A stretch of 53,377 nucleotides of DNA from a virus (lineage: Duplodnaviria; Caudoviricetes), in IMG/VR virus record IMGVR_UViG_3300005043_000142, positions 1 to 53,377 of that record; one strand, given 5' to 3'. The position numbers and the translations under genes are program-made. The notes beneath the pieces were generated by a model that was given only the letters and a program-made list of their open reading frames with translations, did not search any database and had not been told where the DNA came from. Below, in pieces: positions 1 through 53,377 of this stretch (position 1 is its first letter; each line of letters opens with the position of its first letter).

Positions 1-282
1 TCAGCGGTTAACCCTCATCAGAATAACCCCTGGTGCAGCGACCTCAACGCGCCCAATAAACCGCTCTTCACCTGGCGAGCAGATCAGGGCTATAGCTGGC
101 ATCCGGCCAGTCATCTTTGAGTAATACAGGGCCTGCCCTATCGCCTCCGCCCACTTCTTGCACCAGTCGAACTCTATGGCCAGATCATCAGTCAGGCAGT
201 CAACCCGCGTTCGGTCCTCCAAAACCACCTCAGATTTTCCTTCCCAGTATCCGCAGTATTCCGTCACATAATCCGCTTCCAT
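1..282 (-). CDS. Small PD-(D/E)XK nuclease-like protein
   Basis: RVD...AIEFD and WAEAIGQALYY motifs; GGAGG RBS upstream. Confidence 0.5.
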   Translation of the reverse strand: MEADYVTEYCGYWEGKSEVVLEDRTRVDCLTDDLAIEFDWCKKWAEAIGQALYYSKMTGRMPAIALICSPGEERFIGRVEVAAPGVILMRVNR

Positions 283-2093: not shown

Positions 2094-2327
2094 ATGAGCG
2101 AAGAACTGATTAACTTTATTTGCGGCGTAGTCGGCCTGTACCTGCTGGCCATTACCATCGTCATATTCTCCGGCGGATTCCCTACCCGCTGGCAAACGTG
2201 GCCGGTTATTCATGCTGTGGCCTGGGGGTTGCCGATCTTCTTTACTGCCGCGTCCGTGCTGGCCGCCATCCCTGGCTTGGTCATTCTGAGCATTATTATT
2301 GCTGCGACTTCTCGACCACGGGCATAA
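2094..2327 (+). CDS. Small membrane protein
   Basis: Two to three hydrophobic segments; convergent with the giant gene. Confidence 0.55.
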   Translation: MSEELINFICGVVGLYLLAITIVIFSGGFPTRWQTWPVIHAVAWGLPIFFTAASVLAAIPGLVILSIIIAATSRPRA

Positions 2328-8300: not shown

Positions 8301-11300
8301 CATGATCCACAAGCTCGGCTTTTTTCAGTTTGGCCAGGGCTGCTTTGGTGGCGTCAGGGTCGGCAACCACCGATTCAAACACCTGCAGAACCTCACTGGC
8401 CGGCACGGCATCGCCACCATTCAGGCGGCGCATCAGAGCATTAACGGCTTCGTGTGGCGGCAGGTTATCAGGCAGTGCAACGGGCGTTGCCGATTCGGCT
8501 GGAATGTCTGCGCGCGCGCGCTCGATGGCGGCAAGGTAGGCGTTATCGTCGCCCTTAAACACAATGGATTTCAGGTTAAAAGTATTGCTGGTCAGCTCCC
8601 CCGTTGGCGCATCAACAATGACAGATACAGGGTTGCCATCGCGGCCTTTGGTCACTCGCTTAACCTGATAGTCGCCGAACTTCCATTCATCGCCTGGCTT
8701 AAACTGGATAGCCTTCTTCATAAGCTCAGTTTCTGACTGCTCTCGCTTCTGCTGCTTTTCATCCAGCTGCTTTTTCAGCTCGGCGCGCTCCGCTTCAATT
8801 TCTTCCGGAGTTCTTGCGGCCAATACCTTATTGCGGATTTCTGACTGTCTGGATTTTACCCATGAAGAAAATGAATCCTGGGCGCGGTCAAAGGCATTGC
8901 CTCTGGCAGAGGCTTGCTTGCCGTTAAACTTATTTCGGCCAGCAATGAAACTTGACGCTACGCCTTCCCGCGCAGCCAATACGGCAGCATCACGCTTCAG
9001 GTATTCATTGGCAAAATCAACGATTTCAGAATCCAGAACCGTTTTCTGCTGGTCGCTTTTTGTGATTACCTGCAGGTCTTTTTGCGTATTCAGAATGGTG
9101 TTTGCAAAATCATCACGGTGCATTTTTGCAGGCACGCCCGGGGAGCGAACGGAATGCGAGTAAGCCTGAGTGGCTTTCTTCACGTCGTAGGCTGATTCCA
9201 GGCTTTCACGGTTTATGTCGTCGATGGTAAGCGGCTTAGCTTGCTTATCAGATTCAGGCTTTTTTGATTCGCTACCAGTCTTGTCTGCCGCTTTTGATAA
9301 TCCAGCATCGATCGGTTTTTCAGTGTCGCCGGTAGCAATCCAGTCCTTAAACTGCTGCATGGTCAGCTCGTTCACCGGACCGACCTTCCAGCCTTTTTCG
9401 TAGTTCTCTTTGTAGCCGGTAATGGCCTTAGCCTTATCGGTGAAACCAAGCATTATTTTATGCTCATCAAATGAGCCGTCAGCATTCACCTGGTCAACGA
9501 TAAAGACTTTTTCGCTTTCGGGATTTTTGCCAAGATAAACGTCGATGTGCTCACCATCGGCACCTTCGGTTTTTTTCAGATAGCCATAGTGGTGAGCCAT
9601 GGTTACCGACCACGCCTTACCATCCGGATCGGTGCCTGAGCGCTGAGAGCCACGCGGATTTTCGATAGCGATATCCAGCCCTTGAACGGTAACGTGGCCC
9701 TTCTCGTAGTTGCCCGCCTCGATCTGCGCAGCCGTTGGCTCTGGCTTATCATTCAGCGGCGACGTTGCGGCCTCGTTTGCGGCCGCATCAATCTCGCCTG
9801 AAAGGTCGTCATTCATATCCAGCGCACCGGTGCGCGGCGGCTCTGCCATATTGCCGTTGGTAGCCGTGGCGGCACCTTCAGGAATACGCCGCAGCTCATA
9901 ACCGCCGCCTACCTTGGCGATTTCATAGTCTGGGTGTTTCTTCAAAGCGATACGGGCAGAGCCGATATTCTTAAACGGGTTACCGGCAGAATTGCGGATT
10001 GCTGACGGGCCTTGGTATTCCTCGCCAAACCGCTCACGGTAGTAACGCTGCAATTTGGCGCGCTCTTCGGCATTCCGGCGCGAACCTTCACTGGCAACGG
10101 CCGCGCCAGTGCGGCGCCCACCATTGCCGTTAAATTCGCGCTGCCCGACTTTTCTCAAGCTCTCACTATCAGCATCCAACTTCTTAATGGTGCGCTCAAT
10201 TTCTTCTCGACCCATCTCACTAAAGCGGGAATCCATGCTTTCGTATTCTTCACGATCGGCGTTCAGATTGCGCTGATCACGGGTCAGCAGCTCGTCAGGC
10301 TTGGCCTTCTGATAGGCTTCGGTGGCGTTTTTTACGGCGCCCTCTTTGCTATTGGCATACTTCCATGAGCCGCCCGGGTAAAACTTGTATTGCCAGCGGT
10401 CGCGGTACTCGCGCAGCAGTTCTACTTCAGTTAAGCGGGCCTCAGAAACAGAAACCCCGGCAGCGGCCGGGGTTTCTTCATCAATATTTTTTTCAGAAGC
10501 TCTTCCAGCATCTGGAGGCTCTACGCTTTTTTCGGCTCCTGATTTTCGCTTTCCGGAACCGGCTGATTTTTCCGCTTCGGCGGATTCTTCTTCCAGCGCT
10601 CCACCTGCTGCAAAGCCTTCAATACTTGCGGGTGTAATTTCATTTCCGTTGCTCGCTCGTTCAGTTAGTTCTTCGATAATCATGCCAAGAGCTATCGGAT
10701 CATGCCCGTATTCTTGCGCTGCTTTGACCAATACTTGATCTGACACTCCGGCATTTTTCGCATTTTGCATGATTTCAGCCAGAGCGCGGCCCATAGAATC
10801 CAGGGCATCATCGTCGAAAGATTCCTCCAGAATTTCAGGCTCAAGAATATCCGACAGCTCAACTTGTTTTGCACCTACGGATCTTGCCAGCGGCGTATCT
10901 GCATCAACAAATCCAGCTTCCTGCGCTGTCATCTGGCCGCGCATAACCTTTCTGAATTTAAGCACATTTTCGCGCTCAGGCTTCAGATAGTCGCGTGCAT
11001 AGTCGTTACGTTCGTCTGTGAACACATCAAGCAGATAGCGAACCGCACGCGCCTGCCCTTTGCCAAGATCCTTCCCTGCAAGTGAGCGCCGGACCGCTAT
11101 CTGAAGCCCTTGTACGCCGAGACGCTTCACATTATCGGGTGCGTTTTGGAACCAATCTGGGTTAAGTGATTTTGTACGGCCTGTAACGCGCCCGGACTTA
11201 TCAACCATCTGAACAATGCCGCCGCCACGAACAAGCCTGTTTGCCATGTGGTTAAGCTGGTTGCGAAAAGACTCTCGTAGCAAACGGCCATCATCCAACC

Positions 11301-13410
11301 CCTTTGGCTGCTTGTGCTTTCTGATCTGATCCTGAACATTCTCTGCAAGACGGTCTGCACGCCCGTCATCACTGAAGTCGATTGCATCAGCACCAGGCAC
11401 AGCTTCATCAGCGAGCTGTAAGGTCTCACTTACTGGAATATCCGGTCGCTGATACGGGATATCGTTGGTTTCTTCAACATCCACCAGTGGTGGCAACTCT
11501 GCAACCTCTGCTACTGGCGGAGGAACATCACCCAATACAATGCTCTCAGCATCTGCAGGGATTTCATCAACATCTGCAACCGGCGGGCGAACGCCTGGCT
11601 GCTTACCCTGCTGCTCAGTAAAGGCTCGCTCTGTAGCAGCTTTGGCGGCCTTCGCCTCTGCCGTGGTCTCCATGTAATACGGCGCATCAACGCTGGCCGG
11701 AATAGCTCGGGCCGGGTCAGGCTCGTAGTCAGCTACTTCCGGCATAAGCGTTTCAATTTCTTCGTAGGTCTCACCATTCTGTGCCTGTGCCGGTACTGGC
11801 AACTGTTCGGCACGGCCAACCATTTCGCCAACCGCAACATATTCCGCAGGAAGACCGCCTTTGTACTCTGGTGCTGCTGCTTCCATTACGTCGCGATAAA
11901 TCTTCATGCCGCGCTCACGGAATCGCTGCGCGCCTTCCAGATCACTTTCAGCAACCATATCTGCGGCCATTTCAAAATTGCGCTTGGCTGCTCGCAGGCG
12001 TACCGCCTCATCGGTAAAGCCTTGCTCTTCGGCAATTCGGATATCATCGTCAATGCCGCGATACTGGCCGCGCTCGGCTTTAATCTGCGCTAAAGCATCA
12101 TCCAGACTCATAGTTGGCGCTGGCTGTACCTGAGCCATAACGTCAGGGTTAGTTTGGATTGGCTGCATTACACGGCCTTCTTCGTCAACCTGCTGAACAC
12201 GGGCCGGTAGTTTATTTTCTGACGGCTTACCTTTGCTCATGCCGCCCATAACGCCACCAAAGGCACCACCAAGCACACCCTCGTTCAGTGCATTGGTCAT
12301 AACCCCTTCCATAGGGTCCCGGTCAGGATCAACGTCCTGCTCGATCATGGCGGTATTCAGAGCGTACTGCTCCATACCGCCCTGTCCCATTTCCGTAGCA
12401 CCTTGCGCCAAAAACTGCTGACCAGCATTGCTTAACCGACTGCCGGTACCAACACCCCGTAAAATACGGTCAATGAAGTAGCCGCCAGCGGCATCCAGTA
12501 CCAGGTTGGTGGTAATCAGCATTGGGTCGCGCTGAACAGCGCTGGACACTTCATCGGCAACCATCTTTTTAGCAAGGTCGCGGCGCTGGCCAACGTCCAT
12601 ATCCGGGTGCGTATCTACCATGCTCCAATAAGCGCGGCTGAATGCTGGTGACTGGTCCAGCTCAGCATCTGACATTTCCAGTACGGATTCCCGTGCCTCA
12701 TTACCAATCATACCTCCGGCAATACCGGCACCAGCCAGAGACTGGCCGGCAGTGCCAAAGGTGGCTTTGGTCACGTTCTGCGCGTAATGCTTAATGGCTT
12801 CTTCAGTCATGCCGCGACCAGCAGCGTGCTTCGCTGCCGCCTTCGCAACAACCTTCCCGGCAACCTTTGCGCCCAGCGTACCAATGCCATAACCAAGCGG
12901 AATCTGTGCGCCCATCTGGCCTACCAGCGTCATAAACTGCAGCCCCATGGCCCGCGGGTCAGTCCAGGCATCACCAAAGCCCATGCTGCCATTTTCATCT
13001 TCGGTAAAGAACTGCTTTTGCATCGCAGCCTGGCCGGTATCGCTCATTTGGCTGATTTGATCTTTTGCCAGATTGTTCAGTGCCTGACTGGCATTGCCCA
13101 GGGTTTCGCTGCCAGTAATCTGATGCGCGGTTTCAGCCAAGCCACCGGCCGCCTGCGCCGCACCCATCTGAATGGCATCAACAGCATCGCCAAAGAATCC
13201 CTGGTTGCTTTCAGGTGCCGGCATCGGTTCGGCGCTCACGGCTGGCCGGTAGGCACCGGGCGAACCCTGCTGAAAGGCAAGGTCATATAGGCTTGGTCGC
13301 TGATTCATCCGCTCGCCGCGCTCGCCGCGCTCGCGGGCATTTTGCTGGCGCCGGGCAATAGCAGTTTCGCGGTCCAGATCATTCAGACCGACAGTCGTAT
13401 TCTGAGTCAT
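2296..13410 (-). CDS. Giant polyvalent virion/ejection protein (InPase-like, N6-adenine MTase, zincin-like, MuF-C/PBECR-like and LPD38-like domains)
   Basis: 3704 aa. Motifs IENPRGS..HYGY..GADGEHIDV; FFPTP, EPSAGNG, NPPF; HEALGH; HPGMTAEQWKKLPEWIENPAAVF; PFLNARLQG, IPKPFEVG. Last gene of the virion operon. Confidence 0.85.
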   Translation of the reverse strand: MTQNTTVGLNDLDRETAIARRQQNARERGERGERMNQRPSLYDLAFQQGSPGAYRPAVSAEPMPAPESNQGFFGDAVDAIQMGAAQAAGGLAETAHQITGSETLGNASQALNNLAKDQISQMSDTGQAAMQKQFFTEDENGSMGFGDAWTDPRAMGLQFMTLVGQMGAQIPLGYGIGTLGAKVAGKVVAKAAAKHAAGRGMTEEAIKHYAQNVTKATFGTAGQSLAGAGIAGGMIGNEARESVLEMSDAELDQSPAFSRAYWSMVDTHPDMDVGQRRDLAKKMVADEVSSAVQRDPMLITTNLVLDAAGGYFIDRILRGVGTGSRLSNAGQQFLAQGATEMGQGGMEQYALNTAMIEQDVDPDRDPMEGVMTNALNEGVLGGAFGGVMGGMSKGKPSENKLPARVQQVDEEGRVMQPIQTNPDVMAQVQPAPTMSLDDALAQIKAERGQYRGIDDDIRIAEEQGFTDEAVRLRAAKRNFEMAADMVAESDLEGAQRFRERGMKIYRDVMEAAAPEYKGGLPAEYVAVGEMVGRAEQLPVPAQAQNGETYEEIETLMPEVADYEPDPARAIPASVDAPYYMETTAEAKAAKAATERAFTEQQGKQPGVRPPVADVDEIPADAESIVLGDVPPPVAEVAELPPLVDVEETNDIPYQRPDIPVSETLQLADEAVPGADAIDFSDDGRADRLAENVQDQIRKHKQPKGLDDGRLLRESFRNQLNHMANRLVRGGGIVQMVDKSGRVTGRTKSLNPDWFQNAPDNVKRLGVQGLQIAVRRSLAGKDLGKGQARAVRYLLDVFTDERNDYARDYLKPERENVLKFRKVMRGQMTAQEAGFVDADTPLARSVGAKQVELSDILEPEILEESFDDDALDSMGRALAEIMQNAKNAGVSDQVLVKAAQEYGHDPIALGMIIEELTERASNGNEITPASIEGFAAGGALEEESAEAEKSAGSGKRKSGAEKSVEPPDAGRASEKNIDEETPAAAGVSVSEARLTEVELLREYRDRWQYKFYPGGSWKYANSKEGAVKNATEAYQKAKPDELLTRDQRNLNADREEYESMDSRFSEMGREEIERTIKKLDADSESLRKVGQREFNGNGGRRTGAAVASEGSRRNAEERAKLQRYYRERFGEEYQGPSAIRNSAGNPFKNIGSARIALKKHPDYEIAKVGGGYELRRIPEGAATATNGNMAEPPRTGALDMNDDLSGEIDAAANEAATSPLNDKPEPTAAQIEAGNYEKGHVTVQGLDIAIENPRGSQRSGTDPDGKAWSVTMAHHYGYLKKTEGADGEHIDVYLGKNPESEKVFIVDQVNADGSFDEHKIMLGFTDKAKAITGYKENYEKGWKVGPVNELTMQQFKDWIATGDTEKPIDAGLSKAADKTGSESKKPESDKQAKPLTIDDINRESLESAYDVKKATQAYSHSVRSPGVPAKMHRDDFANTILNTQKDLQVITKSDQQKTVLDSEIVDFANEYLKRDAAVLAAREGVASSFIAGRNKFNGKQASARGNAFDRAQDSFSSWVKSRQSEIRNKVLAARTPEEIEAERAELKKQLDEKQQKREQSETELMKKAIQFKPGDEWKFGDYQVKRVTKGRDGNPVSVIVDAPTGELTSNTFNLKSIVFKGDDNAYLAAIERARADIPAESATPVALPDNLPPHEAVNALMRRLNGGDAVPASEVLQVFESVVADPDATKAALAKLKKAELVDHVRGYVYSDTQKDQLVRMAYSGIVQSFRFIGNNSGVVTWSHGDNVEAITQEHIKSLSDADISAYAADRKALIDEKIKAHQDYMERLKNPQTLEDYRRLIQVKGIDSLSVEQRATYDRLTAEKALEEKPVQAVKKGLETEGEIKTGEPEEGQNSKTGETIFNVKVIDRLGTDKFKEAAAFARRMKGGYWKGNFYFPSVETAQQFREWLNGKDIDLTEQVAQRLGEKKARAAARLQQMADRMKEAAEAELNTTRRANTIRQADMAASAVAKAEGAAVTAEVMRRVVNGEAPLLSRMTEKVQAELLARYTRGLVHNASADLTDRDNNGNRFFKADVTPEQMVSGAQMPLDFMYADSLEYIARDMEKVKGHKQAAASLRTLIRGAGDDKRIALNDRVRERIMNFASKHGESHMTYTDVSNQRKRLERMGITSLPVLRAALVEYINLKNSIDRPKKNNRLDDMEQALKRTVLSNRKAFNDFFPTPNDTAAEVVELADIQPGMAVLEPSAGNGMLADSIKGAGGNVDVVEMAGQLREILQEKGHNLIGNDFLELPADEKYDRIVMNPPFSKNQDIDHVTHAYSMLKPGGRIVAIVSSMAGDRSDSKNKAFRNFLNAIAADEQALPEGAFKSSLNPTGVSTKVLIIDKPESGGGETNTEMASGESSEVLFSLPRDNDPGLQKAIADRLKEMAQIAKDKGPSNPVDRSDTPPMADYVRKWIAGVEDDLGVKIEVVETKHDLPESVKADLGSAFNEVEFEGFYNTVTGRTYLIASHLTSRAAAVRAALHEALGHGAVINFIEAQRENGGKALDQVLDDIYQRIGKKLLMKKIQRYNLDLSKVRDRRDAVLEYIAHVAEEGKQMGLVRRVVAALRDLIRKIYPGIGWNDTDTLALIAKSKLHLQQEGTRGVVASRGFVMKQSDETQKRFENRIDALFSGSPASRQGVRILDGADILALLGFDDKPLHLVESAVGKKESGQIKHPGMTAEQWKKLPEWIENPAAVFKSQTQPGSLVLFAPEVVNGRPVRIILKPNAQAAGLDVHLAINAYEEGGSHITPVDKWVKNGDLLYLDEKQSPELNARSGLRLPRDVRQLRGLKTRVLIDRDLVNYRNQKGGGVRGLFRLSDALANDASLTDDQKAALSKIGPKSAAQTAIDRVRDTMTNWRLKVRQGLVDRYAGLLELDKQLLDGNVTSEENITKSAWVKARMSNAAGGAVSAMMNAGRVMLDADGVIDVKKDTSGLIYTLNQLGSAAEVERFMGWIAGNRGEKLMAEGRENLFTPEDIAALKDLNTGAMTDGRDRNATYEKVFAEFQQHRDDVLAIAEKAGIITSENREMWANEFYVPFYRLDEEAEQAQGPRVGGGLSRQQAYKKLKGGTQNLNDLLQNTIMNFHHLLDASLKNMAATQAVDNALELGVVEQTAEAIRDKKQSTFVLRNGEKIWYDVADPLVFQALTSLNPTGMNSTAMKVMRWFKRTFTNLTTSTPQFIVANLIRDSLSAISVTDMKYNAAGNVVQGLKSFGLSNRGGYQRARLMASGGAFSFGHAYGEDAEFIRYQIDGQMRRGKVLRDPKALLGHGLKPLQAAWDRWQDVNNSFENANRMAAFEQAEAAGKGKLYAAFQARDLMDFSASGAWPAVRFLIDVVPFLNARLQGLDKLYRSGVKPTTKVVMQMLGVGSIEASVTERQAAARFSAVVAALSVATMALYLRNQDDEDYQKAEDWMKDTYWWIRIPGTEHVGLIPKPFEVGAIATLAERLLEQAVDDQATGDLFAERLGHMLTSTFAFSPVPQMLQPAFDIYANRDSFTGRDIETMGQQRLSPSNRVNDRTTLVAEMMGTGLEATFGPDSKLALSPVQIDYLISGYFGQVGAWMVGHTDVLKRALSNNDAPARHWYEYQPIRRFYRNMDDPQSDKQTTLFYESLRDAARLHADVQQLKVEGNYAEAAELEKGNRDLLNGRLTLDRVNRKVTAINARIKAIKASQALSADEKRRQIDLLQLRKKQLIERVMPVVEKSQQ
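10450..10477 (-). terminator. Perfect 12-bp terminator-like stem-loop inside the giant gene
   Basis: AGAAACCCCGGC-AGCG-GCCGGGGTTTCT with T-rich tails on both strands. Confidence 0.55.
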
Positions 13411-39478: not shown

Positions 39479-40262
39479 GGGAATTGCCTCGCCTAGAGTT
39501 GTTCTGGTGGAGTGTCCATGCCTTCCGGGTTGATTTGAAAAATGCGGTTTCGTAATTCCCGCCGAACGGGGGTTTTCCCTCAGTCAGCCAGTACGCGACG
39601 AACTCAGGAACGCAACCACGAATAAAATCTTCAGGGATCGACAACATGGCGATACGGCGCACAGTGGTTTCGTCCGGCTGCCAGTGTTCAGAAAAAACGG
39701 TTTCCGGTTTTGGCTGGTACGGTTCTGCCGTCGGGTTTCCGAAAACGTTCCCGCACGCTGTTGGTGTTGTTGTTTGATTATGGTTATTTGATATGGTTAT
39801 TTGATTGGGGGGATTTTTTTCCCTACCAGTCGGGATTTTTTTCCCTACCAAGTCGGGATTTTTTTCCCGCCCTTGGTCGTAATTAGGTAGGGATTTTTTT
39901 CCCGCCCTTCCGGTTGTTGAGGTAGGGATTTTTTTCCCTACCTTACCGCCACCCGTGTTATTCCATAAGCGGCCTTTTTCCGTTATCCGGATCAGTGGCA
40001 GGTTACCGACAACTGCGCGGGAGATTAAGCCTTCAGATTCCAGAGCAGCCATCAGACGCTTGATCGTGTCTGGCTTGTCAGTCAGGATCGGCAGTTCTTC
40101 GCAGATTTTCTCTTTGGCCACCCAGTAGTACGCCTGGCCATCGACAATAAATTCCGAAGCCCAGCTATGGGCCTCATACAAAAAGCTGAACAGCACGGTT
40201 TGGGAAAGATTTAACCCCCACTCCTGAGCGCGCAGCTGATTGATGTAGACTGAAAACTGCAT
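39237..40262 (-). CDS. Replication initiator (O analog) with DnaT-like domain
   Basis: N-terminal wHTH, internal iterons, WQPD...EFVAYW, lambda-O-like LDLTDTDW. Confidence 0.85.
   Translation of the reverse strand: MQFSVYINQLRAQEWGLNLSQTVLFSFLYEAHSWASEFIVDGQAYYWVAKEKICEELPILTDKPDTIKRLMAALESEGLISRAVVGNLPLIRITEKGRLWNNTGGGKVGKKIPTSTTGRAGKKSLPNYDQGREKNPDLVGKKIPTGREKNPPNQITISNNHNQTTTPTACGNVFGNPTAEPYQPKPETVFSEHWQPDETTVRRIAMLSIPEDFIRGCVPEFVAYWLTEGKPPFGGNYETAFFKSTRKAWTLHQNNSRRGNSHGSIHASPAPLDLTDTDWIGDYGKSPFDAPADPAGCAAGELATDRADADFYEMAGGVDAGRHGRSAPGLAHDAGGAGRDE
39771..39942. repeat. Replication origin: five GGGATTTTTTTCCC iterons and an adjacent AT-rich element
   Basis: Copies start at 39810, 39832, 39855, 39890 and 39925; ATGGTTATTTGAT twice at 39780-39805; inside the initiator gene as in lambda. 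Confidence 0.88.
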
Positions 40263-41932: not shown

Positions 41933-41977
41933 TCAATCAATCATAAAATGATAATAATTTGTCACTCGGTACCTGAT

Positions 41978-42628
41978 ATGTCGTTCGGTGAAAGGGTTAA
42001 ACAGCGCAGAAAGATGCTGAAACTCACGCAAAAGGATTTGGCTGCTAGGGTGGGCATTTCTCGAAGCGCGGTCGCCAGTTGGGAAATGGGCGACCACATC
42101 CCGGGCGGCGATCCGGCGATGAAGTTACCAGGCGCGCTGGAATGCTCATGGAGTTGGCTAACGACAGGAAAAGGAAGTGCGCCTGCAGCTTCTGGAAGTG
42201 GCGTTCACTTTGAACCACAAAAGGATCAGCCCATTCCGCTTCTGGAAAAGCCCCACATAGGATCTTTCGTTTCTGGCGAACATGGGTCATTCAAAGAAAG
42301 CGCCGGCCCAAAATCTGCACTTATCCGCGACGCCGCCGGCGCTGGCCCGCGCACCTTTGCCTATGTTGAAACGAGTGATGGCATGTCGCCCCGCATCGAG
42401 CCGGGCGATACTGTGTACATCGACCCGGATCAATCAGAGTGCAAGCCGGGGCGGGAAATATGGCTGTTCAGGGTGGGTAATGGATACGCGCTGGGCACGG
42501 TAACAGAAACACCGCGCGGGTTAATGCTGCGCTTTGATAATCAGGCCCCCGGCTGGGAGCCGATGCCGGTGCAGCCTGCCGACTGCGCCGGAAAGCTCGT
42601 GGCGTTTGTGCCGTCGTGGCTTAATTAG
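41978..42628 (+). CDS. cI: CI-like repressor with degenerate S24 domain
   Basis: XRE HTH plus MSPRIEPGDTVYIDPD; catalytic Ser and Lys appear absent. Confidence 0.88.
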   Translation: MSFGERVKQRRKMLKLTQKDLAARVGISRSAVASWEMGDHIPGGDPAMKLPGALECSWSWLTTGKGSAPAASGSGVHFEPQKDQPIPLLEKPHIGSFVSGEHGSFKESAGPKSALIRDAAGAGPRTFAYVETSDGMSPRIEPGDTVYIDPDQSECKPGREIWLFRVGNGYALGTVTETPRGLMLRFDNQAPGWEPMPVQPADCAGKLVAFVPSWLN

Positions 42629-43829: not shown

Positions 43830-44597
43830 ATGACTCAGGTAGCACAAATGCCACAGCAGCCAAGCGGCGCGCTCGCATCGCTGGCGCAGCGCTTAAACAT
43901 CAACGTGGAAGAAGCGCAAAACATCGTTATCAACACGCTGATGAAGGCCAAGGGCCAAGGCCAGCAGGTAACCAATGAGGAATTTGTCACCTTTCTGGCG
44001 ATTGCCAGCGAGTACAAATTAAACCCGCTGACAAAAGAGATTTACGCCTTCAGCAACCGTGGTGCAATTCAGCCAATCGTATCCATCGACGGCTGGCTGA
44101 AAATCATTAACACCCACCCTCAGTTCGATGGCATGGAATTTAAGGATGCTCTGGATCAAGAAGGCAAGCTGAGCGCTGTTACCTGTCAGATTTACCGTAA
44201 GGACCGCAGTCGTCCAACTGAGCTTACGGAATACATGAGTGAATGTGCCGGATCGTCAGACCCTTGGAAAAAATGGCCTGCGCGTATGTTGCGCCATAAA
44301 GCAACTATCCAATGTGCACGCTACGCCTTCGGCCTCAGCGGTATTGTTGACCCGGACGAGGCCGAGCGCATCGAAAGCGTCACCCGTACAGAGCGCGACG
44401 TAACCTCGAAAGCCGAAGCCCGTCCAGCGCTGGCGCATTACCCGGAGCATAAGTTCGCCCAGAAATTTAGTGGCTGGGAAGATCAAATTAAATCCGGCCA
44501 GCGCACAGCTGAAGACGTAATTAACACCCTTTCAAGCCGCTACGAATTAAGCGTAGAGCAAATTAAATCACTGGAATCCTGTGAGGTATCAGCATGA
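43830..44597 (+). CDS. bet: Bet/RecT-family recombinase
   Basis: YKLNPLTKEIYAF, PIVSIDGW, RMLRHKATIQCARYAFG. Confidence 0.95.
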   Translation: MTQVAQMPQQPSGALASLAQRLNINVEEAQNIVINTLMKAKGQGQQVTNEEFVTFLAIASEYKLNPLTKEIYAFSNRGAIQPIVSIDGWLKIINTHPQFDGMEFKDALDQEGKLSAVTCQIYRKDRSRPTELTEYMSECAGSSDPWKKWPARMLRHKATIQCARYAFGLSGIVDPDEAERIESVTRTERDVTSKAEARPALAHYPEHKFAQKFSGWEDQIKSGQRTAEDVINTLSSRYELSVEQIKSLESCEVSA

Positions 44598-46207
44598 AGC
44601 GTCTCAATTTTGTTCAAGGTAGCCCAGAATGGAAAGCCGCTCGTAGAAAATTCAAAACCGCATCCGAAGCAAGCATTGTTGCGGCAATGAGTAAAAATGT
44701 CAGCCGTGACGAATTGCTTCACATGAAAGCAACGGGATCAGAGCAGGAATTTTCAGAGTGGTTTGAAAAAAACATTCTGGATAAGGGCCATGCAGTAGAA
44801 GCGGCAGCCCGTCCTTTTTCAGAGAAACTTATTGCTAAAAAATTCGGCCTCGACGAAGACGATGCAATGCTGTTTCCGGTTACCTGTATCGATGATACCG
44901 AAGCATATCTCGCAAGCTGCGACGGCCTGACCGATGACGGCCTGATTGGCTGGGAGTGTAAGCAGTGGAATGCCGAAAAAGCAGCAGCTGTTAACTCCGG
45001 ATTAATCCCAGATTGTGATAAGTGGCAGGTCGCCCAGCAGCTTATGGTTACTGGCGCAAAACATTGGCTGTACACGGTTTCTGATGGCACGGAAGAAGGT
45101 TCAGCGCATGTCTGGGTAACACCGGATATGTTCGATTTCGATTTTTTGGTTGCGATCTGGAAACAGTTTGAAGCCGACCTGAAAAACTACCAGGCACCGG
45201 AAGTAAAACCACAAGCAGTAGCTGACGAAGTAACCGCCCTGCCGGCAATCACCATGACGGCAACTGGCCAGGTTGCCGTTGTCGATAACTTTGCTGTTTT
45301 CGAAGCTGGCCTGACAGCATTCCTGCACAACCAGCTGATCCGTGAGCCAAAAACAGACAACGATTTCGCCACGCTGGATAAGCAAATCAAGGCCCTTAAA
45401 AGCGCCGAAGATGCACTGAACGCTGCCGGTGATTCCGTGCTGGCCCAGGTGCAGGCGGTTGATACAGCGATGAAACGCAAAGACAGCCTCTCTGCACTGG
45501 TTCGCGAAAACCGACTGATGGCAGAAAAACTTCTGAAGGCGGAGAAGGAGCGCCGTCGCATGGAAATTATGCAGGCGGCAACAGCCAGCGTAGAAGCCTA
45601 CGTGTTTGATCTTAACGACGAAGTTGGAATTCGAATTCCAATGCCATCACTCGGACTGGCTGGCGCAATGAAAGGCAAAAAGACCATCGCCAGCCTGCAG
45701 TCCGCTGCAAATGACGAAGCGGCCCGCGCGAAAATCGAATCTCGCCAGATGGCCGACAACGTGAAAGAGAACGTGCAGATTCTTGGCTCAATGTGTAGCG
45801 CTGAAATTAAGGGCCTGCTTTTCCCTGATCTGGAATCACTGGCTACAAAGCCCGCTAACGATTTCAAAGCAATCGCCCAAGGCCGCGTTATTCAGCATGA
45901 GCAGCAACTGCGTGAGCGTGAAGAGGCGGCCCGCCGCCAGGCCGAAGCAGAAGCGCAGGCCAAGGCTGAAGCAGAAGCGCAGGCCAAGGCTGAAGCAGAA
46001 ACAAAGGCAACAGAGCAACAGCCTGCCCCGGCACTCGCTGATATTCCGCTGACCACCGGCACGGCCATTAAAGCCAAAACACAGCCGCGCACCCTGGGCG
46101 ACGCACTGACCCACTTTGGCATGCAAAAAAACCTTGGCGATCAGGATATTCAAGAGCTGCTGGATATTGTTGCCCACTACACCAACCTGAACGCAAAAGC
46201 CGCATAA
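44594..46207 (+). CDS. YqaJ/lambda-exonuclease-family protein with coiled-coil extension
   Basis: QGSPEW..RR..TASE, ASCDGL, WECK, QVAQQL. Confidence 0.9.
   Translation: MKRLNFVQGSPEWKAARRKFKTASEASIVAAMSKNVSRDELLHMKATGSEQEFSEWFEKNILDKGHAVEAAARPFSEKLIAKKFGLDEDDAMLFPVTCIDDTEAYLASCDGLTDDGLIGWECKQWNAEKAAAVNSGLIPDCDKWQVAQQLMVTGAKHWLYTVSDGTEEGSAHVWVTPDMFDFDFLVAIWKQFEADLKNYQAPEVKPQAVADEVTALPAITMTATGQVAVVDNFAVFEAGLTAFLHNQLIREPKTDNDFATLDKQIKALKSAEDALNAAGDSVLAQVQAVDTAMKRKDSLSALVRENRLMAEKLLKAEKERRRMEIMQAATASVEAYVFDLNDEVGIRIPMPSLGLAGAMKGKKTIASLQSAANDEAARAKIESRQMADNVKENVQILGSMCSAEIKGLLFPDLESLATKPANDFKAIAQGRVIQHEQQLREREEAARRQAEAEAQAKAEAEAQAKAEAETKATEQQPAPALADIPLTTGTAIKAKTQPRTLGDALTHFGMQKNLGDQDIQELLDIVAHYTNLNAKAA
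45941..46000 (+). repeat. 24-bp in-frame tandem repeat, about 2.5 copies (AEAEAQAK)
   Basis: GCYGAAGCAGAAGCGCAGGCCAAG repeated. Confidence 0.9.
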
Positions 46208-46218
46208 GGACATCAGAA

Positions 46219-46479
46219 ATGGGTGACATGGGAGAGATATTCAACGCAATGCGCGAAGACAGCAAGAAGCGCCGTGAAGCGAATCGTGCAAATGCACCGC
46301 AGATTCTTACTGATGCAGGTATCGAGTATGAATCAAAAAACCATGGAGCCCACCTGATCGTAACCGGCAGCAATTGCCTGATTGATTTCTGGCCGGGAAC
46401 CGGAAAGTGGATCAGCCGTAATGGAAAAAAGGCCCGCGGAGTTCGCAGCCTGATTAAACACATTAAAGAAGGAATATAA
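46219..46479 (+). CDS. Hypothetical phage protein
   Basis: MGDMGE start and [10 protein letters not shown]; AAGGA RBS. Confidence 0.75.
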
Positions 46480-46481
46480 CG

Positions 46482-46697
46482 ATGCTTATTTTAACCCGCC
46501 GTATCGGCGAAACAGTAATGATCGGCGACGACATCAATATCACCGTGCTCGACGTAAAGGGCAACCAGGTGCGCCTTGGAATTAATGCTCCGCGCGAAAT
46601 GGGCGTGCACCGTAAAGAGGTTTACGAGCGTATTCAGGCTGAGAAAGAAGCCGAAGCTGACAAGCCGAAACTTGAAAGCCAGTACGCCACCGCATAA
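46482..46697 (+). CDS. csrA: Phage-encoded CsrA/RsmA RNA-binding protein
   Basis: MLILTRR.GET..IGD......VKGNQVR.G.NAP....VHR; RNA-contact Arg44 retained. Confidence 0.96.
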
Positions 46698-46761
46698 CAA
46701 GCGCCCGAAACCGGCTCCCGGCGCCGGGCCGGCAGGACGCGGGCAAAGGCCGGGGCAAATT

Positions 46762-46795
46762 CAGGACAGGACAGGACACAGGACACAGGACAGGG
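46762..46795 (+). repeat. CAGGA(CA) array with five GGA motifs over the RBS of the next gene
   Basis: CAGGACAGGACAGGACACAGGACACAGGACAGGG, then TT and the ATG at 46798. Confidence 0.9.
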
Positions 46796-46797
46796 TT

Positions 46798-47340
46798 ATG
46801 AACAAAGCCGACTTAATTAAAAAGCGCACCGATTATCTTGCAGAAAACCTTGCGGCCGGTGGTGTTGTGATTATCAACAAACAGGGCGAGGGGTGTGGCT
46901 GGTCACACGAAGTTCGTGACCCTCACCTGTGGGAGCCGGGCTGCATTGCGGTTGAAGAAAACGGCAACTGCTGGACAGCAAGCGGCGGCAACGACTACGA
47001 CGGGGCAACGTACTGGCAGCTCATTACCGACGAGCCTGAGCAGTCACAAGATCGCATCGAAGAGCTTGAGAATGCCTTAGCGATTGCCCTGCCCTTTGTT
47101 GAAGAGGCTAAGTCAGAAATTGGCTACAAGCCAGGCTACGTCGAAAAGACCATTCGCAAACTGATCGACACAAAAGCCGGAAAGGCTGAACCACGCGGCC
47201 GCCACATTCCAGAACCTCTGATTAACAACATGAGCACCGAAGAGCTGCGCAGCGCCATCGCCGGTGCACCGCTCAACTACATGACACTGCAGGCAGTAAG
47301 TCGTCGCCTGCTCGACATCATCGACGATTTAAAGCGCTGA
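46798..47340 (+). CDS. Hypothetical protein
   Basis: Start reassigned to MNKADL; the track's upstream extension overlaps csrA and the repeat array. Confidence 0.7.
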   Translation: MNKADLIKKRTDYLAENLAAGGVVIINKQGEGCGWSHEVRDPHLWEPGCIAVEENGNCWTASGGNDYDGATYWQLITDEPEQSQDRIEELENALAIALPFVEEAKSEIGYKPGYVEKTIRKLIDTKAGKAEPRGRHIPEPLINNMSTEELRSAIAGAPLNYMTLQAVSRRLLDIIDDLKR

Positions 47341-47349
47341 GGTAACAGC

Positions 47350-47802
47350 ATGAAACCAGAAGCATTCATCCACCAGCATATTTTCAGTCAACTCGCTGTT
47401 CGCGGTTATAGCAAAGCTAAGTGCGAACAAATGGCAGGGCGCGCGGTAAACCAGTGGCGGGAAAGCGCCCTTCCTGATGGCGTTAAATTTAACGAGCTGC
47501 TGGCCAACGCAGTTGAAACTGCTGGCGCACCAGTTGCCCGCGGGCAATCTCAGAAAATGCTGCTGGACGCAATTATCGGACGACGGGTGACGGCCGTTTA
47601 TCAGACTAAGCGTATGTGGAGCATGTGGTGCATAGAGGGCCGAACCGAAGCTGGTGTTGATTTCAAATTCAAGCTGAGCACGGATTCAATCCAACGCTTT
47701 ATTTCTGCAGGCCTTCTCAAAGAAACCGCTACCGAAAAAGAACTGGTTGCGACTGATGATATCGACTGGATTCCGGTCGGAATTAAGAAGGTGGCGGCAT
47801 GA
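47350..47802 (+). CDS. Hypothetical protein
   Basis: GAGGT RBS; coupled to the next gene. Confidence 0.7.
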   Translation: MKPEAFIHQHIFSQLAVRGYSKAKCEQMAGRAVNQWRESALPDGVKFNELLANAVETAGAPVARGQSQKMLLDAIIGRRVTAVYQTKRMWSMWCIEGRTEAGVDFKFKLSTDSIQRFISAGLLKETATEKELVATDDIDWIPVGIKKVAA

Positions 47803-48230
47803 ATATGAAAGAAATTTCTACCGAATTTTTCGATAACAGCATCCGTGCAGAGCTGATCGTAAATATCCCGTCGATGCTTTCCGACGAAGATTCTCCGCCA
47901 GATATTATTGCGGATAATGTCTACGACGACCTTGACCGCACTTGCGCAGCCATGGGCATTAAGCCGCCTTCAATTCATGACATCGACGATCTTGGCTTTT
48001 GGTTTTCTGATCTGGCTCGCCGCAAAGGTTTTAACGGATTTCTGGTTCAGTTCGCCACACCAATTCCAACAAATATTCGCCAGGATGGTGGATTCAGTTT
48101 TAGCTGGGGCTACTACACCACCCAATGGATTTATGGCGACACGTACGAAGAGGCTTGTGCAAAAGCCGTCGAATGGGCTGCTGGGTTTGTAAGTGAGAAG
48201 CGCGCTGCGGCTGGGGTGTCTGCAAAATGA
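47799..48230 (+). CDS. Hypothetical protein
   Basis: ATGA-coupled at both ends. Confidence 0.7.
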   Translation: MNMKEISTEFFDNSIRAELIVNIPSMLSDEDSPPDIIADNVYDDLDRTCAAMGIKPPSIHDIDDLGFWFSDLARRKGFNGFLVQFATPIPTNIRQDGGFSFSWGYYTTQWIYGDTYEEACAKAVEWAAGFVSEKRAAAGVSAK

Positions 48231-49114
48231 TCACCGCCAACACCTACTTTTCCGGCATCGGCATGATGGATCTTGGTCTGCAGATGGCAGGCATTCAGAT
48301 CGGCCAGTCATTCGAGCTGGACGCCGACGCATGCAAAACCTACCGGGCAAACCACACCCATAAACTGGTTGAAGGTGACCTGACACAACAGCTGGTGTTG
48401 GAGCAGGACAGCTGCGACCTGATGGCCTTCACCTACCCGTGCACAAAATACAGCCGCATTGCAGATATCCACGGCACCCGCACTGGCGACGAGCTGTTCC
48501 TGCACGCCCTGCGCCATCTGGCCATTGCCCGGCCGGAGGCATACATGGTGGAAAACGTACCAGGCATGCGTGCCTTTCCAGTCGTAATGGAAGCCATGAC
48601 ACAGATGCCAGACTATTACGTTCAGGTGTTCTGCCCGGTTAAGACAGAAACGTGGCTGCCGCAGCGCCGCCACCGACTGATCATCATCGGCACCCGCCGA
48701 GAGTTTTCGATTCGGCCGCCGGCCAATACGCGCCCAGTGACGCTGGCCGAGATTGTCGAGGCTGATCCACAGGTAACCATTCCGAAAGCAGTGGCCGAAC
48801 GCATGAGCGGCAAATACCGCGACCTGCCGATTATTTCCGACCCGGCACGTGGCGATATTGCCCCCACTTGCGTGGCGCATTACGCAAAAGACAAAAGTAC
48901 CCGACTTGTAGCAGATAAGCGGTTTCCGCTGGGTGTGCGCCCCTATTCCGTGCGGGAGTACGCACGACTGCAGGGCCTTCCGGATTCATTCGTATTCCCG
49001 GTATCAGACACAGCCGCATACAAGCAGATAGGCAACGGCGTACCGGTGGACATGGGCCGCTGGGCCGGCGGTGAGCTGGTGCGTTATTTCAACCAAGCGA
49101 GGGCTGCAGCGTGA
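48227..49114 (+). CDS. C5-cytosine DNA methyltransferase
   Basis: FSGIG (motif I), YPC (IV), ENV (VI), QRRHR (VIII), RLQG (IX), GNGV (X). Confidence 0.95.
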   Translation: MITANTYFSGIGMMDLGLQMAGIQIGQSFELDADACKTYRANHTHKLVEGDLTQQLVLEQDSCDLMAFTYPCTKYSRIADIHGTRTGDELFLHALRHLAIARPEAYMVENVPGMRAFPVVMEAMTQMPDYYVQVFCPVKTETWLPQRRHRLIIIGTRREFSIRPPANTRPVTLAEIVEADPQVTIPKAVAERMSGKYRDLPIISDPARGDIAPTCVAHYAKDKSTRLVADKRFPLGVRPYSVREYARLQGLPDSFVFPVSDTAAYKQIGNGVPVDMGRWAGGELVRYFNQARAAA

Positions 49115-49773
49115 AAGTAAAACCAATGATTTTTAACACCGACATGGTGCGCGCCCTACTGGATGGCCGGAAAGTGCAGACGCGTCGGCCGTTTAAACTT
49201 CAACCGTTCTACTCAACGTCATTTTTTCCAAGCTGGGTATTCCCGCGAAATAAATCCGATGTAAAAGCTGGCGATAGCGGACTGTTTTACCCAAACGCAA
49301 AATCAAATGTGCTTGCGCTCAGTGGATATTCAGTCGGCGACCTGATCTATGTGCGGGAAACCTTTCGCCTGCTCGATAGCAACGATCAGTGCGATTGTGA
49401 GTATCCGTGCAACCATCCACAACAGGGATATCCCGTTTACTTTGCCGACGATCAGAACAACGAGCGGAAGTGGAAGCCATCAATTCACATGCCGCGCTGG
49501 GCCAGCCGCCTGACGCTGAAAGTAACCGGCGTTCGCGTTGAACGGGTGCAGGATATTTCTAATGCCGATTGCATCGTCGAAGGATTCACCGGAGGTCACG
49601 GTAGCATTCCCGGCTATATGTACAGCGCTACTCCGAAAGAACATTTTTGCGATACCTGGCAGACAATCTACGGCGAAAGCTGGGAACGCAACGACTGGGT
49701 ATGGGTTATCGATTTTGAGGTGATCCGCCAGAACGTGGATACCTACCTGAAAAAGCAGGAGCACGCGGCATGA
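49111..49773 (+). CDS. ASCH/PUA-like phage protein
   Basis: MVRALLDGRK.QTRR, VRETF, WKPSIHMPRWASR. Confidence 0.8.
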   Translation: MKVKPMIFNTDMVRALLDGRKVQTRRPFKLQPFYSTSFFPSWVFPRNKSDVKAGDSGLFYPNAKSNVLALSGYSVGDLIYVRETFRLLDSNDQCDCEYPCNHPQQGYPVYFADDQNNERKWKPSIHMPRWASRLTLKVTGVRVERVQDISNADCIVEGFTGGHGSIPGYMYSATPKEHFCDTWQTIYGESWERNDWVWVIDFEVIRQNVDTYLKKQEHAA

Positions 49774-50411
49774 ATCAACCACTGCAAACACTGGCAAAAC
49801 TAGCGGAAACCGTTGGCGTTGATTACTCGGCCATTAATTCAGATGACATGATCATCCAGACGGCTGAAGCGGCACTTAAAGAAATTAAACGACTAACCAC
49901 GGAACTGTCCAAAGAAACTGTACGCAAAGAAGCCGCGTATGCGAATGAACAACGGCTTGATAACGACAATTTAGAGCTTCGCCGGCGCATTTTTGCGCGC
50001 TTTAACGAAGACGAGTGCTGGATCTTTCAGGACGACGGCCACGACTACCCCGAAAGCCTAGTGTGTCCCGTTGTAATGTCTGCCGGGAAACTGCGAGAGC
50101 TGGTTGAGGCGCGATCCGAGCTGGATGAAATGGCCGCGCGGGTGGAGCGGTTTCGTGAAATCGTCGTCTCATACTACACAACCGGCGTATGCGTCAGTGA
50201 CGTTAAAAACATTCTCGCAGAAACCCCACCACCCGCTGCACTCGAAGCCCTGAAATCGCAGTGGCAGGCTGATCAATATAACGACGGAATGCCAGCACAA
50301 AAAGCGTTCTGGGAAGGGTTTGAACGCGGAGTAATGAATGGCGCAGTAAATATAAGGGCGCACTGGAATGAATATAAACAGCGCGTACAGGAGGCCGGTG
50401 ATGAAGTTTGA
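49770..50411 (+). CDS. Ead/Ea22-like coiled-coil accessory protein
   Basis: Coiled coils and ETP..A motif; located in the exo-xis region. Confidence 0.5.
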   Translation: MNQPLQTLAKLAETVGVDYSAINSDDMIIQTAEAALKEIKRLTTELSKETVRKEAAYANEQRLDNDNLELRRRIFARFNEDECWIFQDDGHDYPESLVCPVVMSAGKLRELVEARSELDEMAARVERFREIVVSYYTTGVCVSDVKNILAETPPPAALEALKSQWQADQYNDGMPAQKAFWEGFERGVMNGAVNIRAHWNEYKQRVQEAGDEV

Positions 50412-52025: not shown

Positions 52026-52256
52026 ATGAAGGGCTTAATGAAACTGAAGATACGAACAATGGCTTTACTCGAATTGGGTGCCTGGATATCAAAGCGCTTT
52101 GAAAACCCCCGCCCAAGTAAGCGCACTGCACAGCACTGGTGCGTTTCTGGTGCTGTTCCAGCAAAAAAAATCGGCAACAAATGGTTTGTTGATACTGACG
52201 CAGAACAGCTGGAAACTGGGAATGATCTGGTTGATCAAGTATTGCGAGCGAGTTGA
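52026..52256 (+). CDS. xis: Excisionase
   Basis: PSKRTAQHWC..G...AKKIGNKWFVD; coupled to the integrase; start uncertain. Confidence 0.8.
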   Translation: MKGLMKLKIRTMALLELGAWISKRFENPRPSKRTAQHWCVSGAVPAKKIGNKWFVDTDAEQLETGNDLVDQVLRAS

Positions 52257-53377
52257 TGGCACCAAGAGCACGAAAGCACAAAGGGCTGGAGCCAAATCTA
52301 TACCAGTCCGAGCGAAAGAACACGACCTATTACCGTTACAAGCACCCGATAACAGGGGCTTGGCACGGAATGGGCGACAATAAGGCCAAGGCCAATGCAG
52401 CTGCGCGCATTTTAAATGCAAAGCTTCTTACTGGCGGCGCAGGATTGGTTGAGCGCGTACTTGGGATCGCTGACAAAACAATCTCTCACCTCGTTGAGCG
52501 TTTCCGCGCTGAGCGCCTGCCAGAGCTTGGGCTTGCCGCAGGAACGCAGAGAAACACAGAATACCGTCTCAATCGAATAGAGCAGGATCTTGGAAATCGC
52601 ATCATTTCGACAGTCACAACCCAAGACTGTGCAGAGTGGCTTGATAATAATTTCGAACGAAACCCTTACGTTAAGCACCGCGGTACACTGATAGACCTGT
52701 TTCGGTTCGGTGTTACAAAAGGCTATTTGCAGAACAATCCGGCAGATCCAACTTACGCGCAAAAGCAGGATAAAAAAGCGCGCCAGCGCATGACGCTGGA
52801 GCAGTACAAGGCTCTACACGCAGCTGCCCCGTCATGGCTAAAGATCGCCATGGAGATTGCATTAATCACGCTGCAAGGCAGGTACGAAGTCTGCCATATG
52901 CGATATGACGCAATCAGAGACGGCGCGCTGCACGTTGTTCGTGAGAAAACCAAGAAAAACGACTGGGCGCGATTGAGGATCATGATGACCCCCGAACTGG
53001 AGGAAGTTGTGCGAAGATCCAGAGATGACGGTATTGTGAGCCCTTACATTGTTCATTGGCGTCCAAGTAGGATTAAGCCATCGAAAGATACCGACCACTG
53101 GAGCCAGTTCAGTCCAAACAAGTTCGGTGCAGAGTTCCGCAAAGTGCGTGACACGCTTTCGGTGTTCACCCGCATGCAAAAAGAAGAGCGTCCAACCTTT
53201 CACGAGATTCGTTCGCTTGGTGCGTGGCTGTATGAGCAAAACGGCTATCAAACAGACTACGTTCAACAGCTCATGGCCCACGGCGATCAGGCTATGACCA
53301 AATACTACCAGCAGGGCCATTCGGAAAAATGGGTGCAGGTTGAGGCCGGTTTGTGCATAAACGAACTGATCAGTTAG
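52256..53377 (+). CDS. int: Tyrosine integrase with lambda-like arm-binding domain
   Basis: LEPNLY...YYRYKHP; catalytic R, K, HEIR, H and Y residues. Confidence 0.96.
   Translation: MAPRARKHKGLEPNLYQSERKNTTYYRYKHPITGAWHGMGDNKAKANAAARILNAKLLTGGAGLVERVLGIADKTISHLVERFRAERLPELGLAAGTQRNTEYRLNRIEQDLGNRIISTVTTQDCAEWLDNNFERNPYVKHRGTLIDLFRFGVTKGYLQNNPADPTYAQKQDKKARQRMTLEQYKALHAAAPSWLKIAMEIALITLQGRYEVCHMRYDAIRDGALHVVREKTKKNDWARLRIMMTPELEEVVRRSRDDGIVSPYIVHWRPSRIKPSKDTDHWSQFSPNKFGAEFRKVRDTLSVFTRMQKEERPTFHEIRSLGAWLYEQNGYQTDYVQQLMAHGDQAMTKYYQQGHSEKWVQVEAGLCINELIS

Follow-up and report, generated by a model that had tools for sequence, protein, structure and literature searches.

The DNA analysed here (the window, 53,377 bases) is the complete IMG/VR provirus record IMGVR_UViG_3300005043_000142, and the element in question is the non-coding spacer between its csrA gene and the gene that follows, whose product carries an ArdR-like domain. 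Within the spacer a GC-rich hairpin with a GGA in its predicted loop is followed by a tandem CAGGA repeat, the last AGGA of which is taken as the Shine–Dalgarno (SD) sequence of the ArdR-like gene. The spacer is interpreted, with an estimated probability of about 0.45, as a cis-acting, CsrA-responsive translational operator for the ArdR-like gene that is partly built of slippage-prone repeat. Together with csrA it may form the self-contained Csr circuit that the original prediction had proposed; this interpretation is founded on one lineage and on the logic of the sequence. The coordinates of all features are collated in Table 1.

The csrA gene and the spacer

The csrA product matches the Pfam model over profile positions 1–52 of 53 (E 6e-27, 93.8 bits, cut-off 27), is assigned by PHROG to 'CsrA-like regulator' (E 6.7e-31) and matches E. 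coli CsrA (PDB 1y00) with E 3.7e-25. The RNA-binding residues, namely the N-terminal strand LxLxRR and R44 at the junction of strand 5 and the helix, are retained: L2, L4, R6, R7 and R44 are the same in the 1y00 alignment, in which the phage protein differs from E. coli CsrA by V40M, S41G, E45K and I47V. R44 is invariant in 32 phage CsrAs, and the conserved arginine of CsrA is described as essential for GGA recognition in the available text of PMC7366521.

Six GGA motifs are present in the spacer (starting at 46735, 46764, 46769, 46774, 46781 and 46788). The first belongs to CAGGAC at 46733–46738 and falls in the predicted apical loop of the hairpin (AGGAC, 46734–46738, within CAGGACG, 46733–46739); the upper stem below this loop consists of 2 bp plus 3 bp split by a G/G mismatch, and the lower stem has eight pairs, of which six are contiguous. 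The remaining five lie in the array, which reads as two CAGGA units, two further units each followed by CA, a fifth CAGGA, then CAGGG, TT and the ATG, so that the AGGG ends at 46795, 2 nt before the start codon. An intact CsrA, the hairpin CAGGAC at 46733 and five CAGGA units plus an AGGG ending 2 nt before the ATG had all been described in the original prediction and were confirmed, with the refinement that two CA inserts stand between units. The AGGG, 2 nt from the ATG, is too close to serve by the usual spacing, and the last AGGA is therefore the only plausible SD sequence.

Tandem Repeats Finder reports a period of 5 at 46762–46778 (3.4 copies, 100%) and a period of 7 at 46771–46792 (3.1 copies, 100%). 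The pattern CAGGA-N0-2-CAGGA-N0-2-CAGGA occurs in the window at the array only (three overlapping matches), the mean in shuffled sequences being 0.01, with none of 100 shuffles reaching three. When GGA was counted at widths of 35, 40 and 70 nt, the array and spacer formed the densest site of the plus strand (5, 5 and 6 GGA); the plus-strand maximum at 110 nt (7) lies elsewhere, at 42137. Since the minus strand holds equally dense stretches at 35–40 nt and denser ones at 70–110 nt (8 per 70 nt and 10 per 110 nt, at about 213–322), it is not by GGA density alone that the array is special but by its tandem repetition and its placement. The minus-strand cluster at 213–322 is coding and non-repeat, and spans the ribosome site and the first codons of a 93-aa open reading frame (ORF; 282..1) at the left provirus end; it is possibly another CsrA target or may simply reflect codon usage.

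The criteria of CSRA_TARGET (PMC4066749) were re-implemented and applied to 65 putative genes of the window; start codons with an AGGA-type ribosome site were preferred, a choice that raises the background and not the signal. Five of the 65 genes pass, and the leader of the gene at 46798 is the strongest (six primary sites, four in the SD zone, 11 site pairs). Its SD region (−30 to +5) contains four AGGA sites. For the 65 genes, leaders (−60 to +6) with 0, 1, 2, 3 and 4 GGA number 19, 29, 12, 4 and 1, respectively, and the 46798 leader holds 5. The further GGA in an upstream hairpin loop, which belongs to the CsrA-type arrangement, is present by prediction only (AGGAC in the window, AGGA in the relative L200 described below). 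The array is unpaired in the predicted centroid folds of both the window and the L200 alleles.

Whether the spacer itself might be coding was also considered, a frame being open from a TTG at 46576 into the next gene. This is ruled out by frame-shifting indels in the relatives: the total indels of 13 nt (L200) and 18 nt (X14) are not multiples of three, and the spacer frame is therefore not coding.

Relatives and inheritance of the block

The relatives from public sequencing runs come from 4 of 20 runs that contain part of the stretch. A contig from an aquifer run (X2) and its counterpart among metagenome contigs (L200) match the window at 45157–46213 (89%) and at 46482–47041 (92.7%, blastn), and a salt-marsh contig (X14) covers 46465–46801. 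The matches of X2 and of a contig of run X20 stop at 47041; the latter, an RNA contig covering 46830–47041 only, was not taken as evidence of transcription. In L200 and X2 the 86-aa gene directly upstream of csrA is swapped for an unrelated 112-aa gene, which places it outside the conserved block. On the other side, the gene after the spacer encodes only 89 aa in L200, and a PAPS-reductase-like gene stands in the place of the methyltransferase (region L200:3070–4535 for both). Because both flanks are exchanged in relatives, the segment from csrA through the spacer to codon 81 of the following gene is regarded as one inherited block. In DNA searches, phage (distant mode) and E. coli genomes gave at most a match to the csrA core (about 70% identity); the 180-aa protein gave no match among viral contigs or genome contigs, no exact match to sequence patterns taken from the array, from the SD junction or from the end of csrA was present in the collections searched, and synteny with the window was seen in none of 80 viral csrA loci.

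Between L200 and the window, csrA differs at seven nucleotides, all seven in third codon positions, and the proteins are 100% identical; the first 81 codons of the next gene show 13 differences (10 in third positions) and four amino-acid changes. The spacer carries eight substitutions, a 1-nt deletion and a 12-nt deletion. The hairpin accounts for six of these substitutions and for the 1-nt deletion. Four of the six hit paired positions, and all four preserve pairing (one C-G to U-A change, two changes to G-U or U-G), so that 26 of 26 pair cells in the two sequences are paired; the G/G mismatch (46731, 46741) has become A/A. Through the 1-nt deletion the loop AGGAC has become AGGA, with the GGA retained. 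These pairing-preserving changes are suggestive only, as support for the predicted structure.

CAGGA is present in five copies in the window, three in L200 and X2 (12 nt fewer) and two in X14 (17 nt fewer); contigs of the source run show a single repeat allele. The retained repeat units and the SD region have no substitution between L200 and the window, and the rest of the spacer differs at eight positions. The sequence CACAGGACAGGGTTATG is unchanged in L200 and matches in X14 as far as its differences are listed. The L200 leader passes the CSRA_TARGET-type criteria with four sites, and the distance from the loop GGA to the SD GGA is 53 nt in the window, 40 nt in L200 and 35 nt in X14. The earlier proposal that repeat number could tune the element thus stands as far as alleles of different length exist; an effect on expression may follow from them.

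Surveys of csrA loci and CAGGA arrays

A first survey of viral csrA genes comprised 80 loci, 79 of them with full flanks (three rows were mis-parsed, the csrA frame being cut at 10 codons). A second survey, in which csrA was placed by tblastn, comprised 160 viral and metagenome loci, 156 of them with enough downstream flank. Seven of the 156, including L200, show four GGA per 40 nt downstream, the others without a tandem array. The csrA gene of the window has six GGA per 120 nt on either side. A CsrA-adjacent GGA array is a feature of this phage lineage and not of phage csrA genes generally.

The upstream six lie in 46362–46481, inside the 86-aa gene, and two of 79 viral csrA loci have as many upstream; the upstream gene is replaced in L200, and therefore any autoregulatory sites there are not conserved. 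A GC-rich hairpin without GGA repeats was seen within the first 60 nt after csrA in seven loci (L020, L022, L043, L045, L047, L048 and L062).

CAGGA arrays of three or more units were found in other viral contigs at least 122 times, in at least 118 loci. Among those listed, 97 of 122 lie in stop-free frames of at least 150 aa, and their orientation relative to start codons is 26 sense versus 27 antisense; a search with tblastn placed no csrA near any of the matches listed. CAGGA arrays as a class of leader elements were rejected on these counts. One locus, L154, resembles the arrangement of array plus ATG and has no csrA.

Comparison with known systems

The closest likeness is to the glgC-type leaders (glgC, cstA and pgaA of E. 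coli, hcnA of Pseudomonas protegens), which share an SD-overlapping A(N)GGA and a hairpin-loop site at a distance of 10–63 nt. In the available text of PMC7652899, high-affinity CsrA sites show GGA in short hairpin loops, one CsrA dimer can bridge sites 10–63 nt apart, and in glgC the hairpin-loop site tethers CsrA, giving it reach to the site over the SD sequence. The three distances measured here all lie within this bridging range. Unlike the glgC-type leaders, which are 5′ untranslated regions, the window spacer is intercistronic and follows, within a phage operon, immediately on the gene of the regulator itself; most of its sites are perfect tandem repeats 5–7 nt apart, their number is polymorphic between close relatives, and their binding of CsrA is predicted.

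With CsrB, CsrC and RsmX/Y/Z the spacer shares CAGGA-type repeats: CsrB carries repeated CAGGA(U/A/C)G elements (PMC7652899, as far as available), and the hairpin CAGGACG equals this consensus. Unlike these RNAs, it has no Rfam match and neither promoter nor terminator of its own, holds six motifs of which five are outside hairpins, and is embedded in an mRNA. The simple-sequence-repeat contingency loci also have a perfect short repeat at an expression-determining position, with a copy number varying between close relatives; in the window, unlike in those loci, the neighbouring gene encodes a regulator for which the repeat unit may serve as binding motif, and one allele is present in the source run.

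As a phage-borne CsrA close to the host type, the protein resembles other CsrA homologues of mobile elements (phage csrA genes, plasmid RsmQ and gp28 of phage PTXU04). The available texts report csrA in 30 of 2517 phages (PMC7366521) and in phages of GenBank and IMG/VR (PMC8450108), and small plaques after knock-down of PTXU04 gp28 (PMC11879866). No cis-linked GGA element or operator is described in the accessible parts of the literature on phage and plasmid csrA (PMC7366521, PMC8450108, PMC11879866, PMC9928087), a coverage that excludes supplements and most subscription journals.

Proposed mechanism and alternative explanations

If the spacer is an operator, the operon RNA would present csrA, then a hairpin displaying AGGA(C) in its loop, and then an unstructured AGGA run ending in the SD sequence. 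A dimer of CsrA, whether from the phage, the host or both, would dock with one face on the loop GGA and bridge with the other to a GGA at or near the SD sequence, 35–53 nt away, so that ribosome entry would be blocked as in glgC. Extra repeats would provide more landing sites for CsrA and, in its absence, more standby sites for ribosomes, and slippage would alter the gain of the switch. With the repressor gene immediately ahead of it in the operon RNA, the ArdR-like gene would be translated early, and its translation would cease with rising levels of phage CsrA; through polarity, repression might also lower the expression of the tightly packed downstream genes.

Several observations weigh against this operator. 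An enrichment of GGA in the 3′ flanks of phage csrA genes, for which a survey had been suggested, was not found: the 79 viral loci average 1.75 GGA per 120 nt downstream and 2.47 upstream against a background of 1.72, and none of the 156 loci of the second survey reaches five per 40 nt downstream. None of the phage's other leaders stands out for a CsrA-type signature, and a wider phage CsrA regulon, considered as a candidate, accordingly showed no sign in the window. The predicted hairpin does not exceed shuffled sequences in stability (z −0.06 to −0.93), so that fold energy alone is no argument for structure; the covariation test is powerless with two sequences (242 of 500 shuffles do as well), and the structure was derived from one of the two sequences compared. 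The non-repeat spacer diverges about as the third codon positions of csrA do (eight substitutions versus 7/72), and a copy-number drift between 2 and 5 fits weak constraint as well as tuning. Five of the six GGAs in the spacer are of the linear type, to which RsmQ, a plasmid homologue of CsrA, bound only transiently according to the available text of PMC9928087; sites 5–7 nt apart could presumably not all be occupied. Finally, an AGGA repeat beside a start codon can arise from slippage of the SD sequence itself.

That last point leads to the main alternative, itself rather unlikely: a slippage-born duplication of the SD sequence without any CsrA role, in which the extra copies would be neutral or standby sites and the adjacency to csrA coincidental. 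The perfect tandem units with their two periods, the copy numbers of the close relatives, the lack of GGA enrichment or arrays at other csrA genes and the many CAGGA arrays of other viral contigs, none with csrA among the matches listed, all agree with it. Those arrays, on the other hand, are mostly coding and without start-codon bias, so that non-coding SD-repeat arrays are rare, and the chance of adjacency to the sole csrA among about 65 genes would be about 2–3%. A duplication also leaves unexplained the conserved hairpin with its loop GGA and the block inheritance of csrA, spacer and next gene. An improbable alternative accounts for the hairpin instead, as a generic intercistronic element (a csrA 3′ stabiliser, a processing site or a pause site) with unrelated repeats and a non-CsrA factor or none. 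An intrinsic terminator is not among these roles, because the hairpin has no U-tract. The structure-preserving stem substitutions and the seven GC-rich hairpins without GGA arrays behind other csrA genes are compatible with a generic element; the apical loop retains AGGA despite a deletion and two adjacent substitutions, and neither the repeat nor its place at the ribosome-binding site would be explained.

Highly improbable is an mRNA-embedded sponge that would titrate host or phage CsrA, as a miniature CsrB inside the operon transcript. The original prediction had left the choice between operator and sponge; the operator half fits the findings (SD-overlapping GGA, loop GGA 53 nt upstream, the top CSRA_TARGET-type rank among 65 genes, retention in relatives), and the sponge half fares poorly. 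Six GGA motifs within about 60 nt, an array predicted to be single-stranded and one motif equal to the CsrB repeat would suit a sponge. A single GGA in a hairpin loop, a spacing of 5–7 nt that would limit occupancy to two or three protein faces, and a capacity that would be small against the output of the linked gene, one mRNA yielding many CsrA proteins, would not; and what the relatives with two or three repeats have kept is the SD-proximal copies, not a large number of sites. Within 46400–46800 nothing resembling a promoter or terminator was found, and Rfam gave five matches in 45500–48000 at E up to 10, all of them outside the spacer and to families other than Csr/Rsm, which makes a stand-alone sponge RNA unlikely. 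No GacA/UvrY-box-like site was seen near the spacer; matches to the box consensus lie elsewhere and number 10 versus 13.1 expected, which is chance level.

The ArdR-like gene

The gene that the candidate operator would control is read as a fusion. Its second module (about 95 residues, 47053–47340) is found elsewhere as separate small proteins (P0001, P0138), and its N-terminal domain belongs to a widespread family of proteins of about 80 aa, with 353 relatives at E≤0.001 and 52 at 1e-10, for which no Pfam or NCBIfam model was found. Clusters in the ESM Atlas bear the automatic name 'antirestriction protein ArdR family' (0.93). With tblastn the domain hits 342 plasmid records, 243 of them conjugative, and among the hits are genes annotated ArdR at 47–48% identity over about 60 residues (E 2e-7); ArdR is here an annotation name given by similarity. 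In the available texts of PMC8744291 and PMC2887853, ArdR of the IncN plasmid pKM101 is a regulator of the expression of the antirestriction genes ardA and ardB in the leading region. The window gene shares the N-terminal domain with the annotated plasmid genes and differs from them in being phage-borne and fused to the 95-residue module; the leader of a plasmid ArdR example, unlike that of the window, has no GGA array.

An AlphaFold model of the ArdR-like domain is confident (pLDDT 87.8); Foldseek gave no PDB match at E≤0.001, and the best VIA-align Z was 4.5, so that no solved structure is a clear counterpart of the domain. Ten longer members of the family were scanned with Pfam for fused domains, without an informative result, and complex prediction for a CsrA dimer with the domain scored 0.01, which in the absence of controls speaks neither for nor against an interaction. 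Fifteen viral loci encode members of the family. No GGA array is present in the leaders of the 12 viral loci inspected, which hold 0–3 GGA within −60.

With a hidden Markov model of the family, ArdR-like genes were found beside csrA in L200 only, among the 160 csrA loci. A second adjacency was found in three loci (L285:571–980, L293:1492–1880 and L294:1492–1880), in which an ArdR-like gene (73 aa) stands before a divergent csrA (62 aa, 36% identical to the csrA of the window), their stop and start codons overlapping as TGATG; the order is the reverse of that in the window. These three loci are one lineage, unrelated to that of the window, and L285 is 91–92% identical to the other two. The two independent adjacencies may hint at a functional pair. 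In its widest form this would be a portable two-gene phage Csr module, with CsrA and the ArdR-like regulator functionally paired and the number of operator GGAs, changed by slippage, acting as a heritable 'gain knob'; such a module is clearly unlikely, although block inheritance here together with the reverse-order pair would support a real pairing.

Phage and operon context

The window is a lambdoid temperate phage. It encodes a P22-type portal (E 1.8e-106), 42–43% identical to portals of short-tailed lambdoid E. coli phages, a terminase, and lambda-P-like and DnaT-like replication proteins. The csrA operon is on the plus strand (43830–50411), runs from the repressor side toward the integrase and by position appears to resemble the early left operon of lambdoid phages. 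The spacer is its only long gap; in most of the downstream genes stop and start codons overlap. The C5 DNA methyltransferase that had been placed among the genes downstream of the array proved real. With the exchanges seen in L200, the early operon presents itself as a mosaic whose genes are of DNA-modification and anti-restriction type.

Table 1. Features of the window discussed in the text.
Feature	Coordinates	Strand	Basis or remark
CI-like repressor	41948–42625
RecT	starts 43830	+	operon with csrA
YqaJ-like exonuclease	starts 44594	+	operon with csrA
86-aa gene directly upstream of csrA	46219..46479	+	ORF list; phrog_27571, E 1.6e-6
csrA, 71 aa, intact	46482..46697	+	ATG 46482, TAA 46695–46697; Pfam PF02599
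Conserved block (csrA, spacer, first 81 codons of next gene)	46482..47041	+	homology ends on both sides
Non-coding spacer, 100 nt	46698..46797	+	only long gap in operon 43830–50411; ORF coordinates
GC-rich hairpin, 13 predicted pairs	46714..46756	+	minimum free energy and centroid folds
CAGGA microsatellite (CAGGA x3, CA, CAGGA, CA, CAGGA, CAGGG)	46762..46795	+	sequence, Tandem Repeats Finder
SD sequence of 180-aa gene (last AGGA of array)	46787..46790	+	7 nt before ATG 46798
180-aa gene, ArdR-like	46798..47340	+	ArdR-family domain residues ~16–80, second module ~86–180
Five tightly packed downstream genes (150 aa, 143 aa, C5 DNA methyltransferase, 220 aa, 213 aa)	47350..50411	+	ORF coordinates
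C5 DNA methyltransferase	48227–49114	+	PF00145, E 7.9e-38
Lambda-type integrase	52253–53377		right end of window

Three further features of the window were recorded. A polyvalent protein of 3,704 aa is encoded on the minus strand (2296–13410) with MuF_C, LPD38, inorganic pyrophosphatase and methyltransferase-like domains; phage PTXU04, in which the published csrA knock-down was made, likewise has a giant polyvalent protein and csrA (PMC11879866, as far as available). Inside the exonuclease-like gene, a 24-nt tandem repeat (45939–46000, 2.6 copies, 97%) encodes a repeat rich in Ala, Glu, Gln and Lys; the differences of the relatives at this place are insertions, and many unrelated contigs pile up there. 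Three overlapping families of tandem repeats with 13-, 22- and 35-nt units (39769–39938), in and beside the DnaT-like gene, look like origin iterons.

Conclusions

What is new here is a candidate CsrA-type operator, partly a copy-number-variable repeat, behind a phage csrA gene and before an ArdR-like gene. Should CsrA have no effect on it, the locus would be a rare duplicated ribosome-binding site. Published proposals for the targets of phage CsrA concern host defences (PMC8450108, in its available text), and the plaque defect after knock-down is the sole functional result in the texts available (PMC11879866). A candidate target directly behind a phage csrA gene offers a small, concrete and readily testable RNA–protein pair, which could become the first target to be defined for a phage CsrA. 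If it is true that the repeat sets the strength of repression, the spacer would be a natural array of regulator sites tuned by slippage. That phage CsrA is linked with an ArdR-like gene, and this in an early operon with a DNA methyltransferase, points to anti-restriction or establishment functions.

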